Assembly: GCA_030390025.1 (NCBI GenBank) | Contig: JASTWF010000811.1 | Span: 62,001-126,000, forward strand | Length of the DNA: 64,000 nucleotides | Reading direction: 5' to 3' | Origin: Squalus acanthias | Taxonomy: Eukaryota | Part shown: piece after piece, positions 9,815 to 64,000 of the stretch | Position numbering within the stretch: position 1 is the stretch's first letter | Layout of the letters: every line of letters starts with the position of its first letter | Program-made: the position numbers and the translations under genes | The notes under the pieces: model-generated | The model's input: the letters and a program-made list of their open reading frames with translations, nothing else | Told to the model about the DNA's origin: nothing | The model's database searches: none

Positions 9815-10162
9815 CGGTGACATTGAGCGGGGTTCCTGCTCCATCGATATGGCCCCACACACTGCAGGTATAGACAGCGGTGTCACTGAGCTGCACGCCT
9901 GTGATGGTCAGAATGAAGCTGTTACTGGTGACATCCCTGGCAGAGTTAAAATGGGCAGGAAAACTCTGGTACTTTTTCAATTTATTATTTATGTAATGAA
10001 TTAACATCTTCTCCTTCTTTGTACCAGGCAGCTGCCGGTACCAGTGAACATCCACTTCATTCACGTTGGCATTCTTCATGGAACACGGTAAGCTCACTGT
10101 CTGACCCTCTCTCACACTGTGGACTGTCGGAGACTGAACCAGCACTGGGGCCGTCGCTGCAC
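9815..10162 (-). CDS. Ig V-set domain exon with germline-joined J-like segment (exon 2 of an antigen-receptor-like gene)
   Basis: Acceptor ttccattcacag at 10163/4 and donor G|gtaagt at 9814, phase 1-1. Reads (G)AATAPVLVQSP...SLPC...VHWYRQLPG...LTITGVQLSDTAVYTCSVWGHIDGAGTPLNVT, with the canonical Cys, WYRQ, DxAxYxC and GxGTxLxV. Confidence 0.93.
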
Positions 10163-22212: not shown

Positions 22213-22689
22213 GAATGGGCTAGAAATTTGTTATAGCCAAGGAATGGCGATGTTAGGACAAACGATGTTGAATTAGTGCCAGGGGAAAATGCTCTACACT
22301 GCACGCAAAATTCGTCCTCACTGCTCAATAAATTACTTAGGGGGAGAAATTCATTTGGAGCGCAATTATCGGCCGGGCGCAAAGATTGGCGCCTGGTGCT
22401 AATTATCGCCTCTGATTGCAAACTTGACTTCTATCGCCCCTGGAGGTGATTGGAGCGCTAAATCAGGCGCTACACACCTGTCTTAAGGCGCAAAGGCCGA
22501 GGAGCAAGGCGCTAACTCAGAGCGCGGGCGCAGCGCAGGTGCTGTCAGTTAGCGATGGAACACAGACACACTGGCGCCCGACAGTTCTTAAAGGGGAGGG
22601 TCGATCTTGCACTCCAGCCACACCCTGCTCATTGGAGCCTTGAATCTCGGCCTGGAGAGACCTGTGCCTAAATCGTCCAGCCAAGGACT

Positions 22690-31520: not shown

Positions 31521-31839
31521 CCCACCATGGATGGGGAATTGTGAGTGGTCACGGATTGTTAAAGGTTTATTGGGCATGAAGTGAATAGTGACAGTGTCAT
31601 GACATCCGGATTTCGTCCAGTCCAATGATGTCACTTGCAACACGCGCCCCGAACTTTCCGAGAAATCAACCAGGTCTAGAGGGAGGAGAGGGAGAAGGTG
31701 CTGCGGGTGTAAGGAGGGTGGGGTTGGAAGAACGTGACCAGTCTTACCATCTGGATCACATTCTCGCTCTCATTCCCCCCTGCCTTAGACCTGGTTCACG
31801 TTCTTCCCCCATCTCCACTGTGCTCTGGGCTCTTTACAA

Positions 31840-32820
31840 CCCCCCAGTTTCTGAACTGCTCTCCCCGTCGTGTTTCTGACCTTCTCCACCCCCAATTTCT
31901 GACTTCTCTCTCCACAGTTTATAACCTTCTCTTTCTCCCCAGTTCCTGACCCTCTCTCTCTCCCAGTTCCTGACCTTCTCTCTCTCAGTTTCTGACTTTC
32001 TCTTTCCCCCAGTTTCTGACCTTCTCTCTCTCCACAGTTTCTCACCTTCTCTCTCTTCCAGTTCCTGACCCTCTCTCTCTCCCAGTTCCTGACCTTCTCT
32101 CTCTCAGTTTCTGACTTTCTCTTTCCCCCAGTTTCTGACCTTCTCTCTCTCCACAGTTTCTCACCTTCTCTCTCTTCCAGTTCCTGACCTTCTCTCTCTC
32201 CCAGTTCCTGACCTTCTCTCTCCCCCCAGTTCTAGCCCTTCACTCTCCCCCAGTTCCTGACCTTCTCTCACCCCCTAGTTTCTGATGCTCTCTCTCCTCC
32301 AGTTCCCGACCTTCTCCCCCAGTGTCTGACCTTCTTTCTCCCCCAGTTCCTGACCTTCTCCCCCAGTTCCTGACCTTCTCTCCCCCCCCCCGCAGTTTCT
32401 GACCTTCTCTCTCTCCCAGTTTCTGACCTTCTCTCCCCCAGTTTCTGACATTCTCTCTCCCCCAGTTCCCAACCTTCTCCCCCCAGTTTCTGAGCTTCTC
32501 TCTCTCCCAGTTTCTGACCTTCTCTCTCTCCCAGTTCCTGACCTTCTCTCCCCCAGTTTCTGACATTCTCTCTCCCCCAGCTCCCGACCTTCTCCCCCCA
32601 GTTTCTGAGCTTCTCTCTCTCCCAGTTTCTGACCTTCTCTCTCCCCCCAGTTTCTGACTTTCTCTCTCCCAGTTCCTGACCTTCTCTCAACCCCAGTTTC
32701 TGATCTTCTCTCACCCCAGTTTCTGACCTTCTCTCTCCCCCAGTTTCTGACCTTCATTCTCCTCCAGTTTATGACCTTCTCTCTCCCCCAGTTCCTGCCC
32801 TTCTCTCCCCCCACGATTCC
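31840..32820. repeat. Degenerate minisatellite CAGTT(T/C)CTGACCTTCTCTCTCCCC
   Basis: Visible tandem array, related to 19770-20730. Confidence 0.9.
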
Positions 32821-32864
32821 CTCTTTCTCTCGCTCCATCCCATCCTCTCTTCTCCCGCCTGGCC

Positions 32865-33557
32865 AGCACGGATCCAGTGCCGGGTCTTCTCTCTCTCTCC
32901 CCCCGGGTAGCACGGATCCAGTGCCGTGTCTTCTCTCTCTCTCTCTTCACCCCCCCCACCCCCCCACCCCGGGTAACCAGGATCCAGTGCCGGGTCTTCT
33001 CTCTCTCTCTCTCTCCCCGGGTAGCCCAGTTCCAGTGCCAGGTCTTCTTTCTCTCTCTCTCTCTCTCCCCGGGTAGCCCAGATCCAGTGCCGGGTCTTCT
33101 CTCTCTCTCTCTCTCTCTCTCCGGGTAGCCCGGATCCAGTGCCGGGTCTTCTCTCTCTCTCTCTCTCCCCGGGTAGCCCAGTTCCAGTGCCGGGTCTTCT
33201 CTCTCTCGCTCTCTCTCTCTCTCTCCCCCGGGTAGCTCGGATCCAGTGCCGGGTCTTCTCTCTCTATCTCTCTCCCCGGGTAATCCGGATCCAGTGCCAG
33301 GTCTTCTCTCTCTCTCTCGCTCTCCCTCCCTGGGTAGCTCGGATCCAGTGCCGGGTCTTCTCTCTCTCTCTCGCTCTCTCTCTCCGGGTAGCCGGATCCA
33401 GTGCCGGGTCTTCTCTCTCTCTCTCTCTCTACCTGGGTAGCCCGGATCCAGTGCTGGGTCTTCTCTCTCTCTCTCTCTCTCTCTCTCCGGGTAGCCGGAT
33501 CCAGTGCCGGGTCTTCTCTCTTTCTCTCTCCCCGCGTAGCCCGGATCCAGTGCCGGG

Positions 33558-33588
<31 letters not shown>

Positions 33589-33723
33589 CCCGGGTAGCCC
33601 GGATCCAGTGCCCGGTCTTCTCTCTCTCTCTCTCTCTCTCCCCGGGTAGCCCGGATCCAGTGCCCGGTCTTCTCTCTCTCTCTCTCTCTCTCTCTCCCCG
33701 GGTAGCCCGGATCCAGTGCCGGG

Positions 33724-33754
<31 letters not shown>

Positions 33755-33836
33755 CCCGGGTATCCCGGATCAGTGCCGGGTCTTCTCTCTCTCTCTCTCT
33801 CTCTCTTCCCCCGGCTAGCCCGGATCCAGTGCCGGG

Positions 33837-33867
<31 letters not shown>

Positions 33868-33992
33868 CGGATAGCCGGATCCAGTGCCGGGTCTTCTCTC
33901 TCTCTCTCTCTCTCTCTCCGGGTAGCCGGATCCAGTGCCGGGTCTTCTCTCTCTCTCTCTCTCTCCCCGGGTAGCCCGGATCCAGTGCCGGG

Positions 33993-34023
<31 letters not shown>

Positions 34024-34316
34024 CGGGTAGCCGGATCCAGTGCCGGGTCTTCTCTCTTTCTCTCTGCCCGGGTAGCCGGATCCAGTGCCGGGTCTTCTCT
34101 CTCTCTCTCTCTCTCTCTCTCCCCGGGTAGCCCGGATCAGTGCCGGGTCTTCTCTCTCTCTCTCTCTCTCTCTCTCTTCCCCCGGCTAGCCCGGATCCAG
34201 TGCCGGGTCTTCTCTCTCTCTCTCTCTCTCTCTCTCCCCGGGTAGCCCGGATCAGTGCCGGGTCTTCTCTCTCTCTCTCTCTCTCTTCCCCCGGCTAGCC
34301 CGGATCCAGTGCCGGG

Positions 34317-34353
<37 letters not shown>

Positions 34354-34375
34354 GGTAGCCGGATCCAGTGCCGGG

Positions 34376-34406
<31 letters not shown>

Positions 34407-34577
34407 CGGGTAGCCGGATCCAGTGCCGGGTCTTCTTTCTCTCTCTCTGTCTCCCCGGGTAGCACGGATCCAGTGCCGGGTCTTCTCTCTCTCTCTCTCT
34501 CTCTCTCTGGTTAGCCGGATCCAGTGTCGGGTCTTCTCTCTTTCTCTCTCCCCGGGTAGCCCGGATCCAGTGCCGGG

Positions 34578-34612
<35 letters not shown>

Positions 34613-34732
34613 CGGGTAGCCCGGATCCAGTGCCCGGTCTTCTCTCTCTCTCTCTCTCTCTCTGGTTAGCCGGATCCAGTGCCGGGTCTTCTCTCTCTCT
34701 CTCTCCCCGGGTAGCCCGGATCCAGTGCCGGG

Positions 34733-34763
<31 letters not shown>

Positions 34764-34862
34764 CCCGGTAGCCTGGATCCAGTGCCGGGTCTTCTCTCTC
34801 TCTCCCCCCCCCGGGTAGCCCGGATCCAGTGCCCGGTCTTCTCTCTCTCTCTCTCTCTCTCT
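32865..34862. repeat. CpG-rich compound minisatellite CCCGGGTAGCCCGGATCCAGTGCCGGGTCTT(CT)n
   Basis: Visible tandem array with a GGATCC site in most units. Confidence 0.95.
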
Positions 34863-35477
34863 GAGAATCACTTTGCAGCAGAATGTCCAGTCAAGCCTTT
34901 GTTCCCCAGCCTCAGAGAAACACCTCAGGGATGTGAACACACAGTCACAGCAACATTTGCACTGCATGGTTAACGTTGCTGCAAAGCTAAACTTCCAGTG
35001 TAAATCCAGAGTCAGGGCTTAACTCCACTCTGGAGTGAGGTGCAGTGAGAGTCAAAGTCAGACTTGAAATATTTACATTTCCAAGGTCTGGGTGGGAGAG
35101 CGCCATCTGGTGTCTCCTGTTGAAGGTGCTATATAAATGCAGTGATTGTTGTTCCTCAGGCAGGTGCAGTGCTCTTTCCTAAACAGCCAGCCAGGAGTCA
35201 AGCCAGACTTAAAGCCCAACTCCAGCTCCCCGTCTCAGACCAGTAGTTAGTGTGAATGCAGGCTGAATGGGATCTGCCAATATAATCATGCTGCTTCCTC
35301 TTCTAAGGCACTCGCGTCGAAATTGGAAATGAATAAATTCAGCACGTTGCTGGATCACTGCAAAATCTGCCTGACTTGCAGGACACGGTTACACAGTCAG
35401 TAACAGAAAACATCAAAAGTCTAACACACTGAACCAAACACTCGCTGCTTCCTAACCAAACTGGAACAAGTACTTAC

Positions 35478-35529
35478 CCAGAGAAGAGCAGAGGGTCAGA
35501 GTGAAAACCAAGAACATTTTACAGATCAT
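35478..35529 (-). CDS. Signal-peptide (leader) exon of the V-domain gene: MICKMFLVFTLTLCSSL-G
   Basis: ATG at 35529, 17 codons plus G, donor gtaagt. Phase 1 joins the V exon in frame (...CSSLGAATAPVLVQSP). Hydrophobic core typical of a signal peptide. Confidence 0.75.
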
Positions 35530-47053: not shown

Positions 47054-47059
47054 TTTATT
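47054..47059 (-). terminator. Polyadenylation signal AATAAA of the upstream gene
   Basis: About 190 nt after the TGA at 47247, in unique sequence. Confidence 0.5.
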
Positions 47060-47246
47060 TAACTGCTGCACATCAAAGATAATACAGAATCATCAAAAAC
47101 AGAAGAATACATTTGATTCCACCATCACGGTGGGGCAGCCTTAGCTGGGTTCAGCCGAACACAGCACAAGTAGAAAACTCAATTAGCAAGATTACAGCGT
47201 GTGTTTGGAAAAGTTGCACTTTAGACAGCTCGCAACAAAGTAGCAA

Positions 47247-47344
47247 TCATGTGCTTCTGGGCTGTGGCTTGGGGGGCATCAGTCTTAAGACAATCCTCTG
47301 ATCAGATGGCAAATTACTGACGTACTGACACAATGTCCTTTCCT
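47247..47344 (-). CDS. Probable terminal coding exon of a receptor cytoplasmic tail: (Q)ERTLCQYVSNLPSDQRIVLRLMPPKPQPRST*
   Basis: Long polypyrimidine tract plus ctctcag acceptor; phase 1; stop followed by AATAAA. Confidence 0.5.
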
Positions 47345-47374
47345 CTGAGAGGGAGAGAGCCCTGAGAGCATTGA

Positions 47375-47479
47375 GCGAGAGAGAGAGAGAGCCAAGAGTA
47401 TCAAAAGGAGAAAGCAGCGAGCGAGGGAGGGAGAGAGAGCAGCGAGAGAGAGAGAGGGAGAGAGAGAGAGAGAGAGAGA

Positions 47480-47515
<36 letters not shown>

Positions 47516-47580
47516 AAGAGTATCAAAAGGAGAAAGCAGCGAGGGAGGGAGGGAGAGAGAGCAGCGAGGGAGAGAGAGGG
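47375..47580. repeat. (GA)n microsatellite with a duplicated gagccaagagtatcaaaaggagaaagcagcgag unit
   Basis: Visible directly. Confidence 0.9.
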
Positions 47581-47669
47581 GGAGCAGGGAGCTGTTCCAA
47601 GACTTTGAGATGGGTGGAGGGGAAGACAATGGTTTAACCCGACAATCAGGACGCCTGCATGTTATTACC

Positions 47670-48065
47670 TTTCAGAAACGATTATTCCCGGTGCCAGGAA
47701 TTTAAATGATGATGAAAAGTTAAGGAAGCTTAGATTGTTTCCTTTGCAAAACAGAAAACTGCAGCTTGATCGAATTGAACTTTATAAGATTCTGAAGGAA
47801 AGTGCCGAATCAAATTGTTCAAATACCAGGAGAAACAAGTTAGGAAGACAGGAGTAAAGGTTAAAGTCAGGCAGAACTTTATCACCCAAAGGGTCACAGA
47901 ATTGTGGAGTAAGGAACCGAAGAATGTTCCTGGTATGAACAGAATAAATGGGTTCAGGAGATAATCAGATGAGAAAAGGGATTGAGGGATCTGGTGAGCA
48001 GGTGGGGAGCAGGCTTGTTCGGTCTGATAACCTTTTCCTGATCGAATTGTCCATCATATGTTCTT
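47670..48065 (+). mobile_element. Old degenerate CR1 3' fragment
   Basis: IPGARNLNDDEKLRKLRLFPL...ELYKILK...RQNFITQRVTELW. Confidence 0.7.
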
Positions 48066-48086
48066 CCTCCCAGAATAGCATCTTAT

Positions 48087-48132
48087 GGACGGACTTCTTC
48101 TGTGCTTCAGCTGTCAGTTGTTTGTTTATTGC
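48087..48132 (-). CDS. Candidate 46-nt cytoplasmic-tail exon AINKQLTAEAQKKSV with mutated donor
   Basis: Strong acceptor ttttaattttgttcaaacag. Phase 0 to 1 bridges the flanking exons only if C|ATAAGA is a mutated C|GTAAGA. Confidence 0.4.
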
Positions 48133-48277
48133 CTGTTTGAACAAAATTAAAAATAAAGCAGTAATCTAAAGTAATCCAGTGTAAAATGTGACAATAAAAG
48201 ACAATTTCAGCCATTGTCCGAGTTTATCCCGGGTGTATCTGAGTCAAAGAGACTGGTAAGGTCTCAGGGTTGAGTGA

Positions 48278-51200
48278 ATCATAGAATGATAGACATTTAC
48301 AGCACAGAAGGAGGCCATTCGACCCATCGTGTCTGTGCCGGCCGAAAAAGAGCTATCCAGCCTAATCCTGTGAAGGAGTAAGACGTATAACCTATTCAGA
48401 AAAATACACTATCTTATGAAGGAGATCTGGCCTTATTAAAACATGACGAACTGGGTTTGGGAATTTAGAAACCTAACTATGAAATAGCTATGAAAGCATT
48501 CTGGCTATTGAGATAAGACAGTTGTTGACCCTGAATAAATAAACTTATTGAAACAGAATGTGCATGGCTCCGATAAGCTGACCTTTTGGGAACAAAACAA
48601 TGGTTCACCCTGGATAAGGTGTAATAATTTAAATTTCGTAAAGATGATATAAAATAAAGAACACCTGCCCATCACACTGTTTTTATATGGTGAACTTAGA
48701 ACACCTAGAGATAAGACAAGATTCTGGCTGATGTGGCAGTAAGAATGGCAGAGGTCGGCAGAAAGATGACTAGCGATAATTAACTTGCATCAGCAGAAAA
48801 CCTTAAAGGAAACACCACTGGAAAAGGGTATAAATATTGAACTCTCAAATGGAATTCAGACTCGCTTTAATCAGGCAAAGCGATTCTCGGCTTCAGAGGC
48901 GGCTCTGTAGTCTACCACTCTTTGTACCTCGGGGATCAAAGGTATTTGATATTGATGTATATCCTGTATAAGAAACCTTTAAGAACTGTAATACTGTGGT
49001 GAAGTTAAGATTTAAAAGTAAGATTCTCTGTTAAAAACATGTATTTTTTTTCATTTTAGAACTGTTAAAGTTGCAATTGACTGATTCACCAACTGTAGAT
49101 TGCATGTCGGTTCTTTAATAAATCTATATATTTTTAGAATTGTCGCACATAAGACTTCTGTATCAAAAACTCGCAAACTCAATCTCTGTACACTTTTTGG
49201 TGAAGAATTGCAGATTTCTGGGGAAGTTTTCCTGACCCTCTTAATATCTGAGACGTTACAGTCTAGCTAAACTTATTAAAAGTGCTATCTGGAGGACGGT
49301 AACATTCTCAGGTTGTTCCTTTCCTTTAGGGAGAGATAGCCCGGACCTTTGGACCCAATTAAGCATCTTTAGGATTCGGCTACCTCAAACTTTAGTTAAA
49401 AGTGAACATCTGAGAAATAGGCCTGATCCGGGGTAGCCCTAAAGGGGTTGGACTGGTAAATATCCCTTCAATCCCACATTCCAGCTCTTGGTCCATAGCC
49501 TTGCAAGTTACGGCACTTCAAGTCCATATCCAAGTACATTTTAAATGTAATGAGCGTTTCAGCGTCCCACCACCCTCTGGGCGAAAGAAGTTCTCCTCAC
49601 CTCCCCTCTAATCCTTCTACCAGTTACATTAAATCTATGACCCCCTGGTTATTGACCTCTCTTCTAGGGGAAATAGGTCCTCCCTATCCACTCTATCTCG
49701 GCCCCTCATAATTTTATACACCTCAATCAAGTTTCCCCTCAGCCTCCTCTGTTCCAAAGAAAACAATCCCAGCCTATCCAATCTTTCCCGCATGCCTTAA
49801 TCACCCTTTCTACCTGTCCTGCTACCTTCAGGGATCTGTGGACATGCACTCCAAGGTCCCTCTGTTCCTCTACTCTTCTCAGTATCCTACCATTTATTGT
49901 GTATTTCCTTACCTTGTTAGCCCTTCCCAAATGCATTACCTGACACTTCTCTGGATTGAATTCCATTTGCCACTTGTCTGCCCACTTGACCAGTCCATTG
50001 ATATCTTGTTGCAGTCTACACCTTTCTTCCTCATTATCAACCACACGGCCAATTTTTGTATCATCTGCAAACTTCTTAATCATGCCCCCTACATTGAAGT
50101 CTAAATCATTGATATGTACCACAAAAAGCTTAGTAAAATTGGCCTTTCCCCAATTGAGAACTTTTACTCCTGGTCTATCTTTGTCCTTTTCCATAACTAT
50201 GCAAAATCTAACTGAATTATGATCACTACCACCAAAATGTATTAGATATATTTCTACAGGCAAAAGGGGTTAAGGGTTACGGAGAGAAGGCGGGGACGGG
50301 ATACTGAATTGGAGGATCAGCCATGATCTCATTAAATGGCGGAGCAGGCTCGAAGGGCCGGATGGCCTACTCCTGCTCCTATCTTCTATGTATCAATGTA
50401 TCTATGTAAAATGCTCTCCCACTGATACCCCTTCCTCCTGCCCTGCTTCATTCCCTAAAACTAAGTCCAGAACCGTCCCCTCTCTTGTTGGACTTGCTCT
50501 GTACTGGCTAAAAAAGTTCTCCTGAATGCATTTTAAGAATTCTGCACACTCTTTTACACAGATTCTATCCTAGTTAATGTTAGGGACATTGAAATCCCCT
50601 ACTATTACTGCCCTATTGTTTTGCACTTCTCAGAAATGTGCCTAAATATTGGCTCTTCTATCTCCCTCTGATTATTTGGGGGTCTATAGTACACTCTCAG
50701 CAGTGTAATTGTCCCATTTTTGTCCTTCAGTTCAACCCATAGGGCCTCATTTGATGAGTCATAGAGTCATATCGAGCCCATCGAGTCTGTGCCGGCTCTC
50801 TGCAGAGCAACCCAGTCAGTCCCATTCCCCCGCTCTATCCCCGTAGCCCTGCAAGTTTATTTCCCGCAAGGGCGTATCCAGTCTTCCCTTGAAAACATTG
50901 AGTGTGTCCGCTCCCACCACTTCCGCGGCAGCGAGTTCCAGGTCATCACCACTCGCTGTGTAAAAAGGTTTTTCCTCACATCCTTCCTGTATCTCTTGCC
51001 CAAAACTTTAAATCTGTTTCCCCTAGTCCTTGTACCATGATCCTTCCAACATATCTTCCCTGCTCACAGCTGTCATTGTTTCTTCAACCAATATTGCGAC
51101 CCCCCTCCTTTTTTATCCCCCTCGATCTCGTCTGAAAACCCTGTAACCAGGAATGTTGAGCTGCCATTCCTGCCCTTCTTTCAGCCGTGTTTCAGTAATC
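48278..51200 (-). mobile_element. Cluster of CR1 fragments (mostly minus strand; plus-strand 3' piece 50240-50407 with TSD AAAATG), split by the solo LTR
   Basis: CR1 tails, FADDTK and SDHN motifs. Confidence 0.8.
48369..49470 (+). mobile_element. Solo LTR of the foamy-like ERV family (1102 bp)
   Basis: TGTGAAGG...CCCTTCA, collinear with the proviral LTRs; 4-bp TSD ATCC (48365-48368 / 49471-49474). Confidence 0.95.
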
Positions 51201-51279
51201 GTGTCTGTGTTGACTCCAACAGTGGCGGTTGGGGACCCGCAGGCTGAACAGGGGTAAAATGACTGGTCAGCATTCCCGC

Positions 51280-54200
51280 TCCTGATCACTGTCCCGGGAA
51301 TGCTGCTGGAACTGTTTCACTCCTGATCACTGTCCAGGGACTGCTGGAACTGTTTCACTCCTGATCACTGTCCCGGGAATGCTGCTGGAACTGTTTCACT
51401 CCTGATCACTGTCCAGGGAATGCTGGAACTGTTTCACTCCTGATCACTGTCCAGGGACTGCTGCTGGAACTGTTTCACTCCTGATCACTGTCCCGGGAAT
51501 GCTGGAACTGTTTCACTCCTGATCACTGTCCAGGGAATGCTGGAACTGTTTCACTCCTGATCACTGTCCCGGGAATGCTGGAACTGTTTCACTCCTGATC
51601 ACTGTCCCGGGAATGCTGCTGGAACTGTTTCACTCCTGATCACTGTCCAGGGAATGCTGCTGGAACTGTTTCACTCCTGATCACTGTCCAGGGACTGCTG
51701 CTGGAACTGTTTCACTCCTGATCACTGTCCAGGGAATGCTGGAACTGTTTCACTCCTGATCACTGTCCCGGGAATGCTGCTGGAACTGTTTCACTCCTGA
51801 TCACTGTCCAGGGAATGCTGCTGGAACTGTTTCACTCCTGATCACTGTCCAGGGAATGCTGGAACTGTTTCACTCCTGATCACTGTCCCGGGAATGCTGC
51901 TGGAACTGTTTCACTCCTGATCACTGTCCAGGGAATGCTGCTGGAACTGTTTCACTCCTGATCACTGTCCAGGGAATGCTGCTGGAACTGTTTCACTCCT
52001 GATCACTGTCCAGGGAATGCTGGAACTGTTTCACTCCTGATCACTGTCCAGGGAATGCTGCTGGAACTGTTTCACTCCTGATCACTGTCCAGGGACTGCT
52101 GGAACTGTTTCACTCCTGATCACTGTCCCGGGAATGCTGCTGGAACTGTTTCACTCCTGATCACTGTCCAGGGAATTCTGCTGGAACTGTTTCACTCCTG
52201 ATCACTGTCCAGGGACTGCTGGAACTGTTTCACTCCTGATCACTGTCCAGGGAATGCTGGAACTGTTTCACTCCTGATCACTGTCCAGGGACTGCTGGAA
52301 CTGTTTCACTCCTGATCACTGTCCAGGGAATGCTGGAACTGTTTCACTCCTGATCACTGTCCAGGGAATGCTGGAACTGTTTCACTCCTGATCACTGTCC
52401 AGGGAATGCTGCTGGAACTGTTTCACTCCTGATCACTGTCCAGGGAATGCTGCTGGAACTGTTTCACTCCTGATCACTGTCCAGGGAATGCTGCTGGAAC
52501 TATTTCACTCCTGATCACTGTCCAGGGAATGCTGGAACTGTTTCACTCCTGATCACTGTCCAGGGAATGCTGCTGGAACTGTTTCACTCCTGATCACTGT
52601 CCCGGGAATGCTGCTGGAACTGTTTCACTCCTGATCACTGTCCAGGGAATGCTGCTGGAACTGTTTCACTCCTGATCACTGTCCAGGGACTGCTGCTGGA
52701 ACTGTTTCACTCCTGATCACTGTCCAGGGAATGCTGGAACTGTTTCACTCCTGATCACTGTCCCGGGAATGCTGCTGGAACTGTTTCACTCCTGATCACT
52801 GTCCAGGGAATGCTGCTGGAACTGTTTCACTCCTGATCACTGTCCAGGGAATGCTGCTGGAACTGTTTCACTCCTGATCACTGTCCAGGGAATGCTGGAA
52901 CTGTTTCACTCCTGATCACTGTCCAGGGAATGCTGCTGGAACTGTTTCACTCCTGATCACTGTCCAGGGAATGCTGCTGGAACTGTTTCACTCCTGATCA
53001 CTGTCCCGGGACTGCTGCTGGAACTGTTTCACTCCTGATCACTGTCCCGGGAATGCTGGAACTGTTTCACTCCTGATCACTGTCCAGGGAATGCTGCTGG
53101 AACTGTTTCACTCCTGATCACTGTCCAGGGACTGCTGGAACTGTTTCACTCCTGATCACTGTCCAGGGAATGCTGCTGGAACTGTTTCACTCCTGATCAC
53201 TGTCCAGGGACTGCTGCTGGAACTGTTTCACTCCTGATCACTGTCCCGGGAATGCTGGAACTGTTTCACTCCTGATCACTGTCCCGGGAATGCTGGAACT
53301 GTTTCACTCCTGATCACTGTCCAGGGAATGCTGCTGGAACTGTTTCACTCCTGATCACTGTCCAGGGAATGCTGCTGGAACTGTTTCACTCCTGATCACT
53401 GTCCAGGGAATGCTGCTGGAACTGTTTCACTCCTGATCACTGTCCCGGGAATGCTGCTGGAACTGTTTCACTCCTGATCACTGTCCCGGGAATGCTGGAA
53501 CTGTTTCACTCCTGATCACTGTCCAGGGAATGCTGGAACTGTTTCACTCCTGATCACTGTCCAGGGAATGCTGCTGGAACTGTTTCACTCCTGATCACTG
53601 TCCCGGGAATGCTGCTGGAACTGTTTCACTCCTGATCACTGTCCAGGGACTGCTGGAACTGTTTCACTCCTGATCACTGTCCAGGGAATGCTGCTGGAAC
53701 TGTTTCACTCCTGATCAGTCTCCAGGGAATGCTGGAACTGTTTCACTCCTGATCACTGTCCAGGGAATGCTGCTGGAACTGTTTCACTCCTGATCACTGT
53801 CCAGGGAATGCTGCTGGAACTGTTTCACTCCTGATCACTGTCCAGGGAATGCTGCTGGAACTGTTTCACTCCTGATCACTGTCCAGGGAATGCTGCTGGA
53901 ACTGTTTCACTCCTGATCACTGTCCAGGGAATGCTGGAACTGTTTCACTCCTGATCACTGTCCAGGGAATGCTGCTGGAACTGTTTCACTCCTGATTACT
54001 GTCCAGGGAATGCTGCTGGAACTGTTTCACTCCTGATCACTGTCCCGGGAATGCTGGAACTGTTTCACTCCTGATCACTGTCCAGGGAATGCTGGAACTG
54101 TTTCACTCCTGATCACTGTCCAGGGAATGCTGGAACTGTTTCACTCCTGATCACTGTCCCGGGAATGCTGCTGGAACTGTTTCACTCCTGATCACTGTCC

Positions 54201-57200
54201 CGGGAATGCTGCTGGAACTGTTTCACTCCTGATCACTGTCCAGGGAATGCTGCTGGAACTGTTTCACTCCTGATCACTGTCCAGGGACTGCTGGAACTGT
54301 TTCACTCCTGATCACTGTCCAGGGAATGCTGGAACTGTTTCACTCCTGATCACTGTCCAGGGACTGCTGCTGGAACTGTTTCACTCCTGATCACTGTCCC
54401 GGGAATGCTGCTGGAACTGTTTCACTCCTGATCACTGTCCAGGGAATGCTGCTGGAACTGTTTCACTCCTGATCACTGTCCAGGGAATGCTGCTGGAACT
54501 GTTTCACTCCTGATCACTGTCCAGGGAATGCTGCTGGAACTGTTTCACTCCTGATCACTGTCCAGGGAATGCTGCTGGAACTGTTTCACTCCTGATCACT
54601 GTCCAGGGAATGCTGGAACTGTTTCACTCCTGATCACTGTCCAGGGAATGCTGGAACTGTTTCACTCCTGATCACTGTCCAGGGAATGCTGGAACTGTTT
54701 CACTCCTGATCACTGTCCAGGGAATGCTGGAACTGTTTCACTCCTGATCACTGTCCAGGGAATGCTGCTGGAACTGTTTCACTCCTGATCACTGTCCCGG
54801 GAATGCTGCTGGAACTGTTTCACTCCTGATCACTGTCCAGGGAATGCTGGAACTGTTTCACTCCTGATCACTGTCCCGGGAATGCTGGAACTGTTTCACT
54901 CCTGATCACTGTCCCGGGAATGCTGCTGGAACTGTTTCACTCCTGATCACTGTCCCGGGAATGCTGGAACTGTTTCACTCCTGATCACTGTCCAGGGAAT
55001 GCTGGAACTGTTTCACTCCTGATCACTGTCCAGGGAATGCTGGAACTGTTTCACTCCTGATCACTGTCCCGGGAATGCTGCTGGAACTGTTTCACTCCTG
55101 ATCACTGTCCAGGGAATGCTGGAACTGTTTCACTCCTGATCACTGTCCCGGGAATGCTGCTGGAACTGTTTCACTCCTGATCACTGTCCCGGGAATGCTG
55201 GAACTGTTTCACTCCTGATCACTGTCCAGGGAATGCTGCTGGAACTGTTTCACTCCTGATCACTGTCCAGGGAATGCTGCTGGAACTGTTTCACTCCTGA
55301 TCACTGTCCAGGGAATGCTGCTGGAACTGTTTCACTCCTGATCACTGTCCAGGGAATGCTGCTGGAACTGTTTCACTCCTGATCACTGTCCAGGGAATGC
55401 TGGAACTGTTTCACTCCTGATCACTGTCCAGGGAATGCTGGAACTGTTTCACTCCTGATCACTGTCCTGGGAATGCTGCTGGAACTGTTTCACTCCTGAT
55501 CACTGTCCAGGGAATGCTGCTGGAACTGTTTCACTCCTGATCACTGTCCAGGGAATGCTGCTGGAACTGTTTCACTCCTGATCACTGTCCAGGGACTGCT
55601 GCTGGAACTGTTTCACTCCTGATCACTGTCCAGGGAATGCTGCTGGAACTGTTTCACTCCTGATCACTGTCCCGGGAATGCTGGAACTGTTTCACTCCTG
55701 ATCACTGTCCCGGGAATGCTGCTGGAACTGTTTCACTCCTGATCACTGTCCAGGGAATGCTGCTGGAACTGTTTCACTCCTGATCACTGTCCACGGACTG
55801 CTGGAACTGTTTCACTCCTGATCACTGTCCCGGGAATGCTGGAACTGTTTCACTCCTGATCACTGTCCCGGGAATGCTGCTGGAACTGTTTCACTCCTGA
55901 TCACTGTCCACGGACTGCTGGAACTGTTTCACTCCTGATCACTGTCCAGGGAATGCTGCTGGAACTGTTTCACTCCTGATCACTGTCCAGGGAATGCTGG
56001 AACTGTTTCACTCCTGATGACTGTCCAGGGAATGCTGGAACTGTTTCACTCCTGATCACTGTCCCGGGATTGCTGCTGGAACTGTTTCACTCCTGATCAC
56101 TGTCCAGGGAATGCTGGAACTGTTTCACTCCTGATCACTGTCCCGGGAATGCTGCTGGAACTGTTTCACTCCTGATCACTGTCCAGGGAATGCTGCTGGA
56201 ACTGTGTCACTCCTGATCACTGTCCAGGGAATGCTGGAACTGTTTCACTCCTGATCACTGTCCCGGGAATGCTGCTGGAACTGTTTCACTCCTGATCACT
56301 GTCCCGGGAATGCTGGAACTGTTTCACTCCTGATCACTGTCCAGGGACTGCTGCTGGAACTGTTTCACTCCTGATCACTGTCCCGGGAATGCTGGAACTG
56401 TTTCACTCCTGATCACTGTCCAGGGAATGCTGCTGGAACTGTTTCACTCTTGATCACTGTCCAGGGAATGCTGCTGGAACTGTTTCACTCCTGATCACTG
56501 TCCAGGGAATGCTGGAACTGTTTCACTCCTGATCACTGTCCAGGAAATGCTGCTGGAACTGTTTCACTCCTGATCACTGTCCAGGGAATGATGCTGGAAC
56601 TGTTTCACTCCTGATCACTGTCCCGGGAATGCTGCTGGAACTGTTTCACTCCTGATCACTGTCCAGGGAATGCTGGAACTGTTTCACTCCTGATCACTGT
56701 CCAGGGACTGCTGCTGGAACTGTTTCACTCCTGATCACTGTCCCGGGAATGCTGCTGGAACTGTTTCACTCCTGATCACTGTCCCGGGAATGCTGCTGGA
56801 ACTATTTCACTCCTGATCACTGTGCAGGGAATGCTGCTGGAACTATTTCACTCCTGATCACTGTCCAGGGAATGCTGCTGGAACTGTTTCACTCCTGATC
56901 ACTGTCCCGGGAATGCTGCTGGAACTGTTTCACTCCTGATCACTGTCCCGGGAATGCTGCTGGAACTGTTTCACTCCTGATCACTGTCCAGGGAATGCTG
57001 CTGGAACTGTTTCACTCCTGATCACTGTCCAGGGAATGCTGCTGGAACTGTTTCACTCCTGATCACTGTCCCGGGAATGCTGCTGGAACTGTTTCACTCC
57101 TGATCACTGTCCAGGGACTGCTGGAACTGTTTCACTCCTGATCACTGTCCCGGGAATGCTGCTGGAACTGTTTCACTCCTGATCACTGTCCCGGGAATGC

Positions 57201-60200
57201 TGCTGGAACTGTTTCACTCCTGATCACTGTCCAGGGAATGCTGGAACTGTTTCACTCCTGATCACTGTCCAGGGAATGCTGGAACTGTTTCTCTCCTGAT
57301 CACTGTCCAGGGAATGCTGCTGGAACTGTTTCACTCCTGATCACTGTCCAGGGACTGCTGCTGGAACTGTTTCACTCCTGATCACTGTCCAGGGAATGCT
57401 GGAACTGTTTCACTCCTGATCACTGTCCCGGGAATGCTGCTGGAACTGTTTCACTCCTGATCACTGTCCAGGGGCTGCTGGAACTGTTTCACTCCTGATC
57501 ACTGTCCAGGGAATGCTGGAACTGTTTCACTCCTGATCACTGTCCAGGGACTGCTGGAACTGTTTCACTCCTGATCACTGTCCAGGGAATGCTGGAACTG
57601 TTTCACTCCTGATCACTGTCCAGGGAATGCTGCTGGAACTGTTTCACTCCTGATCACTGTCCAGGGAATGCTGGAACTGTTTCACTCCTGATCACTGTCC
57701 AGGGAATGCTGCTGGAACTGTTTCACTCCTGATCACTGTCCAGGGAATGCTGCTGGAACTGTTTCACTCCTGATCACTGTCCAGGGACTGCTGGAACTGT
57801 TTCACTCCTGATCACTGTCCCGGGAATGCTGCTGGAACTGTTTCACTCCTGATCACTGTCCCGGGAATGCTGCTGGAACTGTTTCACTCCTGATCACTGT
57901 CCAGGGACTGCTGCTGGAACTGTTTCACTCCTGATCACTGTCCCGGGAATGCTGCTGGAACTGTTTCACTCCTGATCACTGTCCAGGGACTGCTGGAACT
58001 GTTTCACTCCTGATCACTGTCCAGGGACTGCTGCTGGAACTGTTTCACTCCTGATCACTGTCCCGGGAATGCTGCTGGAACTGTTTCACTCCTGATCACT
58101 GTCCAGGGAATGCTGCTGGAACTGTTTCACTCCTGATCACTGTCCGGGGACTGCTGGAACTGTTTCACTCCTGATCACTGTCCAGGGACTGCTGCTGGAA
58201 CTGTTTCACTCCTGATCACTGTCCCGGGAATGCTGCTGGAACTGTTTCACTCCTGATCACTGTCCAGGGAATGCTGCTGGAACTGTTTCACTCCTGATCA
58301 CTGTCCAGGGAATGCTGCTGGAACTGTTTCACTCCTGATCACTGTCCAGGGAATGCTGCTGGAACTGTTTCACTCCTGATCACTGTCCAGGGAATGCTGC
58401 TGGAACTGTTTCACTCCTGATCACTGTCCCGGGAATGCTGCTGGAACTGTTTCACTCCTGATCACTGTCCAGGGAATGCTGGAACTGTTTCACTCCTGAT
58501 CACTGTCCCGGGAATGCTGGAACTGTTTCACTCCTGATCACTGTCCCGGGAATGCTGCTGGAACTGTTTCACTCCTGATCACTGTCCCGGGAATGCTGGA
58601 ACTGTTTCACTCCTGATCACTGTCCAGGGAATGCTGGAACTGTTTCACTCCTGATCACTGTCCAGGGAATGCTGGAACTGTTTCACTCCTGATCACTGTC
58701 CCGGGAATGCTGCTGGAACTGTTTCACTCCTGATCACTGTCCCGGGAATGCTGCTGGAACTGTTTCACTCCTGATCACTGTCCCGGGAATGCTGGAACTG
58801 TTTCACTCCTGATCACTGTCCAGGGAATGCTGCTGGAACTGTTTCACTCCTGATCACTGTCCAGGGAATGCTGCTGGAACTGTTTCACTCCTGATCACTG
58901 TCCAGGGAATGCTGGAACTGTTTCACTCCTGATCACTGTCCCGGGAATGCTGGAACTGTTTCACTCCTGATCACTGTCCCGGGAATGCTGCTGGAACTGT
59001 TTCACTCCTGATCACTGTCCAGGGAATGCTGCTGGAACTGTTTCACTCCTGATCACTGTCCACGGACTGCTGGAACTGTTTCACTCCTGATCACTGTCCA
59101 GGGAATGCTGGAACTGTTTCACTCCTGATGACTGTCCAGGGAATGCTGGAACTGTTTCACTCCTGATCACTGTCCCGGGATTGCTGCTGGAACTGTTTCA
59201 CTCCTGATCACTGTCCAGGGAATGCTGGAACTGTTTCACTCCTGATCACTGTCCCGGGAATGCTGCTGGAACTGTGTCACTCCTGATCACTGTCCAGGGA
59301 ATGCTGCTGGAACTGTTTCACTCCTGATCACTGTCCCGGGAATGCTGCTGGAACTGTTTCACTCCTGATCACTGTCCCGGGAATGCTGCTGGAACTGTTT
59401 CACTCCTGATCACTGTCCCGGGAATGCTGCTGGAACTGTTTCACTCCTGATCACTGTCCCGGGAATGCTGCTGGAACTGTTTCACTCCTGATCACTGTCC
59501 AGGGAATGCTGGAACTGTTTCACTCCTGATCACTGTCCAGGGACTGCTGCTGGAACTGTTTCACTCCTGATCACTGTCCAGGGAATGCTGGAACTGTTTC
59601 ACTCCTGATCACTGTCCAGGGAATGCTGGAACTGTTTCACTCCTGATCACTGTCCAGGGAATGCTGCTGGAACTGTTTCACTCCTGATCACTGTCCAGGG
59701 AATGCTGGAACTGTTTCACTCCTGATCACTGTCCAGGAAATGCTGCTGGAACTGTTTCACTCCTGATCACTGTCCAGGGAATGCTGCTGGAACTGTTTCA
59801 CTCCTGATCACTGTCCCGGGAATGCTGCTGGAACTGTTTCACTCCTGATCACTGTCCAGGGAATGCTGGAACTGTTTCACTCCTGATCACTGTCCAGGGA
59901 CTGCTGCTGGAACTGTTTCACTCCTGATCACTGTCCAGGGAATGCTGCTGGAACTGTTTCACTCCTGATCACTGTCCCGGGAATGCTGCTGGAACTGTTT
60001 CACTCCTGATCACTGTCCCGGGAATGCTGCTGGAACTGTTTCACTCCTGATCACTGTCCAGGGAATGCTGGAACTGTTTCACTCCTGATCACTGTCCAGG
60101 GAATGCTGGAACTGTTTCTCTCCTGATCACTGTCCAGGGAATGCTGCTGGAACTGTTTCACTCCTGATCACTGTCCAGGGACTGCTGCTGGAACTGTTTC

Positions 60201-61270
60201 ACTCCTGATCACTGTCCCGGGAATGCTGCTGGAACTGTTTCACTCCTGATCACTGTCCAGGGGCTGCTGGAACTGTTTCACTCCTGATCACTGTCCAGGG
60301 AATGCTGGAACTGTTTCACTCCTGATCACTGTCCAGGGACTGCTGGAACTGTTTCACTCCTGATCACTGTCCAGGGAATGCTGGAACTGTTTCACTCCTG
60401 ATCACTGTCCAGGGAATGCTGCTGGAACTGTTTCACTCCTGATCACTGTCCAGGGAATGCTGGAACTGTTTCACTCCTGATCACTGTCCAGGGAATGCTG
60501 CTGGAACTGTTTCACTCCTGATCACTGTCCAGGGAATGCTGCTGGAACTGTTTCACTCCTGATCACTGTCCAGGGACTGCTGGAACTGTTTCACTCCTGA
60601 TCACTGTCCCGGGAATGCTGCTGGAACTGTTTCACTCCTGATCACTGTCCCGGGAATGCTGCTGGAACTGTTTCACTCCTGATCACTGTCCAGGGACTGC
60701 TGCTGGAACTGTTTCACTCCTGATCACTGTCCCGGGAATGCTGCTGGAACTGTTTCACTCCTGATCACTGTCCCGGGAATGCTGCTGGAACTGTTTCACT
60801 CCTGATCACTGTCCCGGGAATGCTGCTGGAACTGTTTCACTCCTGATCACTGTCCAGGGAATGCTGCTGGAACTGTTTCACTCCTGATCACTGTCCAGGG
60901 AATGCTGCTGGAACTGTTTCACTCCTGATCACTGTCCTGGGAATGCTGCTGGAACTGTTTCACTCCTGATCACTGTCCAGGGAATGCTGCTGGAACTGAT
61001 TCACTCCTGTTCACTGTCCAGGGACTGCTGCTGGAACTGTTTCACTCCTGATCACTGTCCCGGGAATGCTGCTGGAACTGTTTCACTCCTGATCACTGTC
61101 CAGGGAATGCTGGAACTGTTTCACTCTTGATCACTGTCCAGGGAATGCTGGAACTGTTTCACTCCTGATCACTGTCCAGGGACTGCTGGAACTGTTTCAC
61201 TCCAGATCACTGTCCAGGGACTGCTGCTGGAACTGTTTCACTCCTGATCACTGTCCAGGGACTGCTGGAA
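51280..61270. repeat. ~10-kb minisatellite, 38/41-bp unit CTGTTTCACTCCTGATCACTGTCC(A/C)GGGA(A/C)TGCTG(CTG)GAA
   Basis: Highly homogeneous head-to-tail array, about 250 units. Confidence 0.98.
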
Positions 61271-61715
61271 GAGAGAATGAATGAAAGTGGAAGTGAGACA
61301 AAGATAATGGGTGGCAGTTAGAGGGAGGAGGACAATGGATAGAAGCAGGAAGTTGAGGAGGGCAATGGATAGCAGTGGAGGGAGGTGGGGAGTGGATGGT
61401 AGTGGGAAGGACAGTAGCAGGAATGGATGGTGGTGGGGGAAGGATGGCCGAATGCATGGCAGTGAAGCAGGAGTGAGTGCCTGGCACTGAAAGATGGGAT
61501 GGAGTGTATGGCTGTGGAAGGGGGAAGACAGAGAAGATTGAAGGGAATTCCAAAGAGTCGGGCCCATGCGGCAGAAAGATTTATTACCAATGGTGGGGCA
61601 ATGGGAAGGAGGTGCACCACAGACCAGAGCCAGGAGAATGGAGTAATGAGGTGGAGGATTGTAGAGCTGGGGGAGATTGTAGAGTTAGGGTTCGGCGATG
61701 GGAATTCAGCACATT
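61271..61715 (-). mobile_element. Degenerate L2-like LINE fragment
   Basis: Pyrimidine-rich reverse strand with L2-like endonuclease-region wording. Confidence 0.5.
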
Positions 61716-62045
61716 TGCTGATTAAAGGTATGACAAGCTACTGCCCACTAAGCTATCGCTCATTCAAACTTGGGAGTCTATGGCCACACATCTCATCATC
61801 TGCCGGAGTGCGATAAGTGTCTCAGAGTCCAGGAACAGATGCAGCAAAGTACATTCTGTACAGAGCAAGGACAATCATCTTAACTGCCAATATTCAGATG
61901 GTCTACAGTGCCACGAGGGAAAATAAGTGCAGAAATAACTGGACAAAGTGGTGTAGAAAGACACAAACACATCATCAGATCTGTCCCATCACACAGATCC
62001 TTCTCATTACAGAAAGCAACATCCTCGAAAACCAACTGAACTCAC

Positions 62046-62119
62046 CTGTGTGTCTCCTGCAGAAAAAACATTTTCATAATCAGCAGTTGTGTTCTGATCA
62101 TCAGCTGTTCCCGATGGTG
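62046..62119 (-). CDS. Cytoplasmic-tail exon PSGTADDQNTTADYENVFSAGDTQ
   Basis: Acceptor ttttatcatttatttcccag, donor CAG|gtgagt; 74 nt, phase 1 to 0; contains YENV. Confidence 0.6.
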
Positions 62120-62254
62120 CTGGGAAATAAATGATAAAATCTCACCAACATTAACTGCAATGATATTAATCATACTTTGCTGCCAACAATAACATTTTAT
62201 ATATTATCAAAACAGGTTCTTTAACAATTAGTTCAGGCCTTTTATTTTTTTTAG

Positions 62255-63760
62255 AAATAGGAGCAGGAGTCGGCCATTCGGCCCTTCGAGCCAGCTCCGC
62301 CATTCAATGAGATCATGGCTGATCTTCTGCCTCAACTCCATTCACCGGCCCTATCGCCATATCCCTTGATGCCTTTACTAGTCAGAAATCTATCGACTTC
62401 TGTTTTGAATATACCCAATGACTGAGCCTCCACAGCCCTCTGGGATAGAGAATTCCAAAGATTCACCACCCTCTGTGTGAAGAAATTTCTTCTCATCTCA
62501 GTCCTGAATGGCCTACCCTTTATCCTGAGGCTGTGGCCCCTGGTTCTAGACTCCCCAGCCAAGGGAAACATTCTCCCAGCATCCATCCTATCAAGCCCTG
62601 TAATAATTTTGTATGCTTCAATGAAATCCCCTCTCATTCTTCTGAATTCAAGAGAATACAGGCCTAGTTTACTCAATCTCTTCTCATACGACAGTCCCGC
62701 CATCCCAGGAATCAATCTCGTGAACCTTCATTGCACTCCCTCTATGGCATGTATACCCTTCGTTAGGTAAGGAGACCAAAATTGTACACAGTACTCCAGG
62801 TGTGGTCTCACCAAGGCCCTATATAATTGGAGTAAGACTTCTTTACTCCTGTACTCAAATCCTCTTGTAATGAAGGCTAGCATACCATTTGCCTTCCTAA
62901 TGGCTTGCTGCACCTGCACATTCACTTTCAGTGACTCATGTACAAGGACACCCAGGACCCTTTGAGCATCTGCATTCCCCAATCTTTCACCATTTAGGAA
63001 ATACTCTGCCTTTCTGTTTTTTCTACCAAAGTGAATAACTTCACATTTATCCACATTATATTCCATCTGCCATGTTCTCGCCCACTCACTGAGCCTGTCG
63101 AGATCAACTTGAAGCCTCTTCACATCCTCTTCACAACTGACACTGCCACCTAGCTTTGTATCATTGGAAATGTTACATTTAGTCCCCTCATCCAAATCAT
63201 TGATATAGATTGTGAATAGCTGAGGCCCAAGCACCGATCCTTGCGGTACCCCACTAGTCACAGCCTGCCATCCTGAAAAAGACCTGTTTATCCCTACTCT
63301 TTGTTTTCTGGCTGTTAACCATTTCTCAATCCATGCTAGTATATTACCCCCAATTCCATGTGCCCCAATTTTGTTCACCAATCTCTTGTGCCTTCTGAAA
63401 ATCCAGATACACCACATCTACCAGTTCCCCTTTGTCTACTCCAATAATTACATCCTCAAAGAACTCCAATAGGTTTGTCAAACAGGATTTCCCTTTCATA
63501 AATCCATGTTGACTCTGCCCAATCTTACTATTAGTTTCTAATGCCCAGTTATTGCATCCTTTATAATAGATTCCAGCATTTTCCCAACTACTGATGTGAG
63601 GCTAACAGGTCTGTAGTTCCCCGTTTTCTCTCTCCCTCCTTTCTTAAATAGCGAGGTTACATTTGCTATCCTCCAATCTGCAGGAACTATTCCAGAATCT
63701 ATAGAATTTTGGAAGATGACAACCAATGCGTCCACTATCCCAATGGCCACCTCTTTCAAA
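62255..63760 (-). mobile_element. CR1 LINE 3' portion
   Basis: NYRPVSLTS, GVPQGSVLGP, RPHLEYCVQFW, RTRGH. Confidence 0.92.
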
Positions 63761-64000
63761 AACCCTTTCTACCAAACGTCCCCCGGAGTTACTGCAGGAA
63801 CGTGCCGGAAGGGATGCAGATTTTCAGCTCAGTTGAGAGGATTTCTCAAATGTTCCATTTCTGGTGAAATATTAAGAACATTTGAAAATTCTGGAGAGGA
63901 ATAGACCCACAGGTCCATCCAGCCTGTCCCAGACAGTGCTTCTCGACTCGAGTGGGAAACATTGCATTCAGGAGAGATGGGTACAAACTAGTTTGGCTGC

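Follow-up and report, generated by a model that had tools for sequence, protein, structure and literature searches.

A probably dead, headless tail copy beside clustered germline VJ receptors with putative activating and inhibitory tails in Squalus acanthias

Little is known about variable paired receptors of the natural-killer or myeloid type in cartilaginous fish. Among the systems with which a candidate can be compared, NKp30 has one domain, a charged transmembrane (TM) segment and a short tail, the NITRs are V-I receptors of teleosts, and SIRP has a V domain followed by C1 domains; in an ITAM, an acidic residue stands three places before the first tyrosine. In the CEACAM pairs, as described in PMC2110893, CEACAM1 carries ITIM/ITSM motifs, and CEACAM3, CEACAM4 and dog CEACAM23-29 carry an ITAM; the same text calls an intron of phase 0 that splits the motif typical of ITAMs. 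The motif itself is defined as YxxL/I-x6-9-YxxL/I in a cytoplasmic tail (PMC4034164). The domains of the fish MDIR and NILT receptors are CD300/TREM-like, with a YWCR motif and a second disulfide, according to PMC3031540.

The window analyzed here is a stretch of 64,000 nucleotides from S. acanthias (contig JASTWF010000811.1, here C3676, positions 62,001 to 126,000); positions are those of the window unless a contig is named. The original prediction placed the 3' part of a gene for a transmembrane immune receptor, perhaps a paralog of the VJ gene downstream, on the minus strand between 62119 and 47054. A receptor of the VJ type is borne out by intact paralogs, which splice VJ, TM and YENV exons together in RNA. 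We are fairly confident that this part of the window is a likely dead, headless tail copy devoid of its ITAM, and that its intact sisters, composed of VJ, anchor, YENV and a two-exon ITAM, are likely activating partners of inhibitory sisters with near-identical outer domains.

The first cytoplasmic exon, encoding DYENV (62046..62119, minus strand; 74 nt, bounded by AG and GT, phase 1 to 0), is a genuine exon of the receptor family: it is present in eight genomic copies, it matches the sawshark models P0015/P0017, and on the paralogous contig C131 it is joined by splicing to TM and ITAM exons in four of four runs. These runs, four of nine listed, stem from three studies, two organism codes and other individuals, and were used as assembled contigs; no run is recorded as RNA, and the four were taken as such owing to their GT..AG joints. 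Two further exons, 48132-48087 and 47344-47247, had been chained to the first. The three pieces, when joined, do give the predicted peptide, AATAAA is present at 47059-47054, and the RNA contigs confirm the acceptor at 48132; the 3' border at 48087, the reading frame and the status of 47344-47247 as an exon did not hold. In all four runs contigs enter at this acceptor and continue unspliced across the supposed intron to 47070-47199, their sole gap, near 47400-47521, falling in a GA microsatellite (about 47400-47576; TRF), the end of which is the supposed acceptor of the third exon. At 48087 there is no GT donor in the window or in any of the eight genomic copies inspected, the letters being ATAAGA instead, and the two pieces thus form one terminal exon. 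The upstream exon that reaches the acceptor ends in phase 1 in the RNA contigs, so the frame differs from the predicted one: the coding part (48107..48132, minus strand), translated from the loose ends of the RNA contigs after the second ITAM exon, starts in phase 1 and encodes about eight residues, the last of them NKQTTDS, before a TGA at 48109-48107. Since the exon is unspliced and its frame is phase 1, 47344-47247 with its PxPxPR motif is 3'UTR, which by contig cover and TRF extends over 47054..48106 (minus strand) and also holds the microsatellite and AATAAA. The CIN85/CD2AP-type ligand, and with it a CD2-type tail, is thereby set aside, the motif lying outside the translated tail and its occurrence being within chance (six-frame counts over the window: PxPxPR 5, YxN[VILM] 19, YENV 1). 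YENV is credible because RNA and conservation back it, unlike the proline motif. The predicted 55-aa frame of the terminal exon has no Pfam family and, as a protein query, gave two candidates, none at E<=1.

In the intact copy covered by RNA contigs, the transcript runs from the VJ domain through the TM exon, the YENV exon and two ITAM exons to the terminal exon. In each of the four runs a single contig shows the GT..AG joints TM to YENV, YENV to ITAM-A and ITAM-A to ITAM-B and runs on into the terminal exon, and in two of the four this contig begins in the end of a VJ exon; in length and depth these contigs equal those seen across the terminal exon. A family of VJ(-C)-TM-YENV receptors signaling through tails of their own is thus upheld as to the tails, whose function is predicted, and not as to the C domain: VJ is spliced straight to TM in RNA and the family proteins are VJ-only. 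The ITAM escaped the original prediction because it is deleted in the window copy. In intact copies it reads TYMAL-x7-SIYSEL (YxxL-x7-YxxL), and its first YxxL is interrupted by an intron of phase 0, exon A ending in TYM followed by GT and exon B beginning with AL. Seven database proteins keep the motif; they belong to a sawshark, to carpet sharks of three genera and to a stingray. Position -3 relative to the first tyrosine is occupied by N in the S. acanthias genome and in the sawshark, and by E in Stegostoma P0024. YxN is found in five of these seven ITAM-type proteins (YETV in two), so that not all of them have the Grb2 site. The TM segment of the family is without a charged residue. Judged by their motifs, the ITAM-tailed sisters are likely activating receptors: binding of a ligand by the outermost domain would cluster the receptor, Src-family kinases would phosphorylate the ITAM, Syk/ZAP-70 would dock on it, and Grb2-family adaptors would dock on YENV. 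The sisters with ITIM/ITSM tails are likely inhibitory and would recruit SHP phosphatases.

The intact copies are clustered receptors built from germline VJ domains only, one to six in number. Near-identical ectodomains are combined with tails of three types (ITAM, ITIM/ITSM, double YxN); the genome holds nine TM exons of the ITAM type, three of the ITIM type and two diverged ones of the YxN type. Between an ITAM-type gene, whose second ITAM exon contains a stop, and an ITIM-type gene on C3676, of which the TM and first tail exon are present and the ITIM exon was seen in the C262:396k paralog, domains V1-V4 are 92, 99, 97 and 96% identical, a likeness that lies in a 17-kb block of 97% DNA identity. 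In V1, pN is 0.074 against a pS of 0.018 (pN/pS about 4; pN<=pS in 0/5000 codon bootstraps), counted pairwise on seven related copies, some of them perhaps alleles; V2 and V3 show no excess (1775/5000 and 3479/5000). Diversifying selection acts on the outermost domain. These features of paired receptors are present: gene clusters, near-identical ectodomains with opposing tail motifs, and a diversifying membrane-distal domain. The family is present in both sharks and rays, and V-domain relatives occur in a chimaera; the cluster in S. acanthias sits on unplaced contigs. We found no description of the family in the literature searched, in which key literature was partly covered and some queries were swamped by unrelated terms.

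A second member of the family lies downstream in the window on the minus strand, with the double-YxN tail type. Its germline VJ exon (9815..10162; V-set E 3.8e-20) falls inside the family clade, and a split-leader exon of phase 1 (35478..35529), the only hydrophobic ATG..GT exon in a scan of 10166-47050, presumably joins it. The paralogous tail looked for beyond position 1 is there: further V, TM and YxN exons lie on the same strand at C3676:43224-39029, the tail reading DYENI, which supports the predicted paralogy between the window tail and this VJ gene. A looser C1-exon regex, which recovered the C1 exons of sigma-2 light chains, found none after the window V exon; a strict one found nothing, even at sigma-2 loci.

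The window tail is broken on both sides of its first exon. Homology to intact copies ends at 62253, in the intron between TM and YENV, at a LINE fragment (62253..63764, minus strand), which we take to be CR1-like and which contains RT-like ORFs at 62332-63417; the TM exon of intact copies is missing here. It lies directly upstream of the YENV exon in six of eight copies, the exceptions being the window and C262:971475, and no near-identical TM exon occurs on C3676. On the other side, a 41-bp satellite of about 250 copies (51279..61267, ~10 kb, no strand assigned; TRF) occupies the place of about 2.3 kb that hold both ITAM exons in intact copies; homology to C131 stops at 61268, and neither the window nor the rest of C3676 holds a match to the ITAM exons. 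As assembled, the window copy has lost its TM and ITAM exons and, both being missing, is probably a pseudogene fragment. Its head had been expected beyond position 64000; the leader closest by (C3676:126595) and five V exons there point away from the tail and belong to a different, inhibitory-type gene; the 60 kb of contig upstream of the window contain no minus-strand V or TM match, and a scan of that strand for hydrophobic segments upstream gave stop-ridden repeat frames only. The cassette of tail, LINE and leader recurs at C262:971k and in part at C262:441-453k, and the LINE junction is present in one low-depth contig of run X1. An inversion with its breakpoint at the LINE would have cut the window copy from its head, the ITAM exons would have been lost afterwards, and events of the same kind would also swap ectodomains between tails. 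The window copy is of little weight in itself, except as a footprint of such reshuffling.

The breaks could also belong to the assembly rather than the genome: the contig is unplaced and carries a 10-kb satellite, 9084-44551 is 99% identical to C262 and arranged differently, and the ITAM loss at the satellite is without the second witness that the LINE junction has. This junction was seen again on C262 and, independently, in a run. We consider it improbable that the headless layout or the ITAM loss arose from misassembly of a segmental duplication. Continued use of the copy is improbable as well. Transcription, for example from a LINE or bidirectional promoter, would then yield a non-coding RNA or a short YENV peptide of the cytosol. 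The intact splice sites and polyA signal, a promoter 2.5 kb away head to head, and the X1 contig running across the LINE junction into the YENV exon might speak for this; that contig is, however, unspliced at a depth of 2.4, and the four spliced contigs contain the TM and ITAM exons absent from the window and the terminal-exon letters of other copies, although, as contigs assembled from other individuals, they are uninformative on whether the window copy is silent.

Two readings concern the tail as such. A genuine three-exon tail with a CIN85/CD2AP-type PxPxPR is hardly credible: its joined frame does stay open, and in the sawshark model P0015, where ITAM-B is skipped, the terminal exon opens in the predicted frame, but this frame shifts between species, and it faces the missing donor, the unspliced RNA and the chance-level motif count described above. 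The most serious alternative, though still an unlikely one, is that the two-tyrosine tail of intact copies is inhibitory or switchable, in which case the family would comprise brakes and co-receptors instead of on/off pairs. SIYSEL, the second ITAM half, also fits the ITIM pattern (S/I/V/L)xYxx(I/L/V), as does STYSEL, and both the charged TM residue and, in the S. acanthias genome, the acidic residue at -3 are absent; against this, the x7 spacing and a first YxxL interrupted in phase 0 mark an ITAM, and a separate sister type already has LYYADI and TEYAAI.

For the V domains, sigma-2 light chains are, with moderate support, the closest relatives among the sampled groups. Identity to them averages 38.6%, against 25-32% for other groups, and a second tree (LG+G4; 22 rows dropped as long branches or near-duplicates; NKp30 left out) joins the family and sigma-2 as sister groups at 94/79. 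In a first tree (76 rows, quick method) the deep forks are open and the family has a support of 78, and none of four alternative placements was rejected by AU tests, which used fast constrained trees (p-AU 0.08-0.49). A PDB sequence search returned antibodies, pIgR and JAML, and no family member. Germline-joined sigma-2 VJ-C clusters are present in the S. acanthias genome, but their octamer (2/2 leaders) is found in none of nine family leaders, and the VH/VL contact residues are degenerate in the family, unlike in sigma-2: Pro at L44 (Kabat numbering, as for L38) occurs in 0/23 family domains against 5/6, and Gln at L38 in 7/23 against 6/6. We tentatively consider it possible, while giving it less than even weight, that a sigma-2-type germline VJ, its CDR3-J loop seven residues long, became detached from C domain, octamer promoter and heavy-chain partner, was duplicated many times in tandem and came to be joined to tails with an ITAM, an ITIM/ITSM or a double YxN, and that inversions mediated by LINEs continue to reshuffle heads and tails. 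The closeness to sigma-2 bears on the question whether fixed VJ receptors are pre-RAG relics or later recruits from antibody genes.

Compared with known systems, the family shares a split leader with sigma-2 (type I, NS5, sigma-cart), as described in PMC5985310, and departs from it by lacking a C domain and by its tandem domains, TM segment and signaling tail. With PRARP/VJC1 and UrIg/UrIg2 it has in common a single-exon VJ, a split leader, the absence of rearrangement and an elasmobranch host; these have C1 domains (PMC10751288, PMC12227049), whereas the family has none and forms a many-copy cluster with tyrosine-motif tails. NKp30/NCR3 is likewise a germline VJ receptor in sharks and the second-ranked look-alike by language-model features (0.95), but the family differs in its one to six domains, uncharged TM and long tails. 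An identity with SIRP was rejected for want of C1, the 'SIRP-like' name on P0003/P0004 being automatic. Skate MDIR and teleost NITR and NILT are also multigene fish families of activating and inhibitory Ig receptors (PMC3031540); a Cys after the core Trp, as in YWCR with its second disulfide, occurs in 0/23 family domains. In organization the family resembles the CEACAMs, clustered Ig-superfamily genes in which outer V domains that are nearly identical stand on either an ITAM or an ITIM tail, with an ITAM in their own tail split by a phase-0 intron, and with TM and tail exons that travel together; this is an analogy only, as the family ectodomains are all light-chain-like VJ without C domains and there is a third, double-YxN tail. 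The family supplies concrete candidates, since it combines putative activating tails that have RNA support with sisters of the inhibitory type and an outer domain that diversifies, and ligand screens and reporter assays are therefore feasible. If true, recruitment from sigma-2 would reverse the usual innate-to-adaptive story and make the family the sharks' equivalent of KIR/LILR/CEACAM-type systems, assembled from parts of adaptive immunity.

Of the tail that the original prediction built from three minus-strand exons, the first cytoplasmic exon stands: it runs from 62119 to 62046, has AG/GT ends and codes DYENV. Joining it to the other two pieces (48132-48087 and 47344-47247) does yield the predicted peptide, but the second piece is followed by ATAAGA where a GT donor would be needed, in the window as in all eight copies inspected. 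Contigs assembled from sequencing runs of other individuals (four of nine runs, treated as RNA because of their GT..AG joints) cover the region; in each of the four, a single contig enters at the 48132 acceptor, continues unspliced across the supposed intron and ends at 47070-47199, its sole gap being a GA microsatellite. The second and third pieces are therefore one terminal exon, with the polyA signal AATAAA (47059-47054) just beyond the contig ends, and the PxPxPR proposed as an SH3 ligand, one of five in the six frames of the window, falls in the 3'UTR. The observation is thus partly confirmed.

The true continuation of the tail is seen in two sawshark gene models (P0015 and P0017), where the same TM-YENV sequence leads into exons absent from the predicted chain; other genomic copies have these additional exons between the YENV and terminal exons. 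Compared with the paralog on contig C131, the same four runs each show three GT..AG joints, from the TM to the YENV exon, from there to ITAM exon A, and from exon A to exon B; after exon B the loose contig end is the terminal exon in all four, and in runs X3 and X9 the contig starts within the final codons of a VJ exon. Since the lengths and depths of these contigs equal those on the window, each represents one type of molecule, which begins in VJ or TM sequence and reaches the 3'UTR. Together, exons A and B code TYMAL-x7-SIYSEL, which fits the definition of an ITAM in PMC4034164, and a phase-0 intron lies inside the first YxxL, a split typical of ITAMs according to PMC2110893. Exon B ends in phase 1; the terminal exon thus codes about eight residues, with the stop at 48107. 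The motif pair is conserved in seven database proteins, from a sawshark, Stegostoma, Rhincodon, two Chiloscyllium species and the stingray Hemitrygon, and the YENV tyrosine and first ITAM tyrosine are invariant in all 11 aligned proteins, two of which carry YETV.

In the genes of this family, a split leader precedes VJ domains in tandem, each on a single exon (one to six domains per database model), then an uncharged TM segment and one of three tails: YENV with the ITAM; an ITIM with an ITSM (LYYADI, TEYAAI); or two YxN motifs (DYENI, IYENV or IYMNV). All three tails are present in this genome, with nine ITAM-type, three ITIM-type and two diverged YxN-type TM exons, alongside 11 leaders of the commonest kind. 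Three of the nine ITAM-type TM exons belong to a second subfamily (C262:321023-335454, C1469 and C3786), with near-identical TM and second ITAM exons and a different first tail exon, containing DYDNL, to which the TM exon is spliced in run X1. Ectodomains are shared across tails, an ITAM-type and an ITIM-type gene being 92, 99, 97 and 96% identical in V1 (the outermost domain) to V4. The VJ gene downstream of the tail, suspected to be its relative, is indeed a family member, of the YxN type, with its leader at 35529, a V exon at 10162-9815, and additional exons for V, TM and tail at C3676:43224-39029, on the contig of the window (itself C3676:62001-126000); its splicing is predicted. A near-identical counterpart of its VJ exon at C262:1056454-1056797 (L035, L069) is frameshifted; the window exon is open. 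Large G-rich or C-rich tandem arrays (1862-9080, 19777-20730 and 30131-34900) occupy introns of this gene. A diverged branch of the family, which has a V-V-TM layout and a very short tail lacking tyrosine motifs, is found at C515:293619-293963 (L111) and in P0048 and P0055. Named protein relatives come from cartilaginous fish only, with members in at least 10 shark and ray genera and V-domain relatives in Callorhinchus; the bony-vertebrate matches among 30 that were named, out of the best 150 from 1.84 billion representatives, fall outside the family. The members' database names are automatic and unrelated.

The window copy itself is broken on both sides. The analysis covered its whole 186-kb contig and parts of eight others from a 3.7-Gb genome, which holds at least eight YENV exons; in six of these eight a TM exon precedes the YENV exon by about 180 nt, the exceptions being the window and C262:971475. 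Similarity to intact copies ends at 62253, the start of a LINE fragment, and 2.5 kb further on a leader and five V exons on the opposite strand lead into an ITIM-type TM exon; the V exons upstream, expected to be the tail's own, thus face the other way. Downstream, similarity ends at 61268, the start of a 10-kb satellite, and ITAM exons A and B have no match anywhere on C3676, with seven full and three partial matches on other contigs. As the cassette of tail, LINE and leader recurs on C262, and one X1 contig (depth 2.4) contains the LINE junction, the TM-side break is probably real; the ITAM exons are lost as assembled, with the window assembly as the single witness. Otherwise, window 9084-62253 is up to 99% identical to C262:1005000-1057533 taken in the opposite direction, and an inversion that broke at the LINE would have separated the tail from its head. 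The window feature is likely a pseudogene fragment. The interpretation of the tail in the original prediction is partly supported. Lesion-free TM, YENV-type, A, B and terminal exons are found in four copies (C131, C262:794k, C262:866k and C3771); damaged copies show a stop in exon B (C262:1010k), a dead acceptor (C262:454k) or a Tyr-to-Cys change (C1626). Elsewhere in the window, a minus-strand ORF at 24863-26152 (429 aa between stops), presumably a Harbinger/PIF-like transposase, faces 22672-24563 on the plus strand, which we take to be its Myb/SANT-like partner; a plus-strand ORF at 12689-13624, presumably RNase H and integrase-like, would belong to an LTR or retrovirus-like element.

Selection is evident on the outermost domain: across seven distinct copies, V1 has a pN of 0.074 against a pS of 0.018 (a pairwise count over related copies, some perhaps alleles), none of 5000 codon bootstraps gives a pN at or below pS, and the changes cluster near CDR1, the C-C' strands, CDR2 and CDR3. 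No comparable pN excess is found in V2 (12 copies) or V3 (5 copies). By established ITAM, ITIM and YxN biology, ligand would bind at V1 and Src-family kinases would phosphorylate the tail, whose ITAM would dock Syk/ZAP-70 and whose YENV would dock Grb2-family adaptors; the sister ITIM/ITSM tails would recruit SHP phosphatases. On the ITAM reading the tail would be activating; SIYSEL by itself also fits an ITIM.

Beyond the cluster, the closest V domains of this genome sit on C3553 and C24 (L103-L108, L121-L122), in dozens of VJ exons joined in the germline. A light-chain C exon lies downstream in three of the five checked for it, and the C3553 loci checked resemble P0188, the sigma-2 chain of the horn shark, matching it at 68-72% in the V part and 75-84% in the C part. 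The mean identity of family domains is 38.6% with sigma-2, 32% with VJ-C1 proteins that do not rearrange and 25-29% with other groups. In a tree of 54 rows (22 of 76 dropped; NKp30 and UrIg absent), the family is a single clade (100/96) with sigma-2 as its sister (94/79, below the starred level), and AU tests against four alternative placements rejected none (p 0.08-0.49). The stretch from the second Cys to GxG is fixed at seven residues in all 23 family domains, a sign of descent from a single germline VJ. Judged by their sequences, these domains have lost light-chain habits: VH/VL contact positions are degenerate, and the octamer, present in both sigma-2 promoters checked, which also have a TATA box, was found upstream of none of nine family leaders. 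A GGAAGT core about 100 nt before the ATG, which we take to be Ets-like, is conserved in these nine leaders (e.g. C3676:126475-126595). The family may have been recruited from a joined sigma-2 exon or may descend from a never-split VJ. Sigma-2 genes joined in the germline are reported for gar, turtle and coelacanth (PMC5985310), and Ig genes that have rejoined are proposed to be able to turn into new receptors (PMC2193156).

Full-text literature searches, some dominated by unrelated terms, returned no description of the family, and supplementary listings may exist. The family behind the window fragment is real, a variant on the paired Ig-receptor design that apparently has no name yet.
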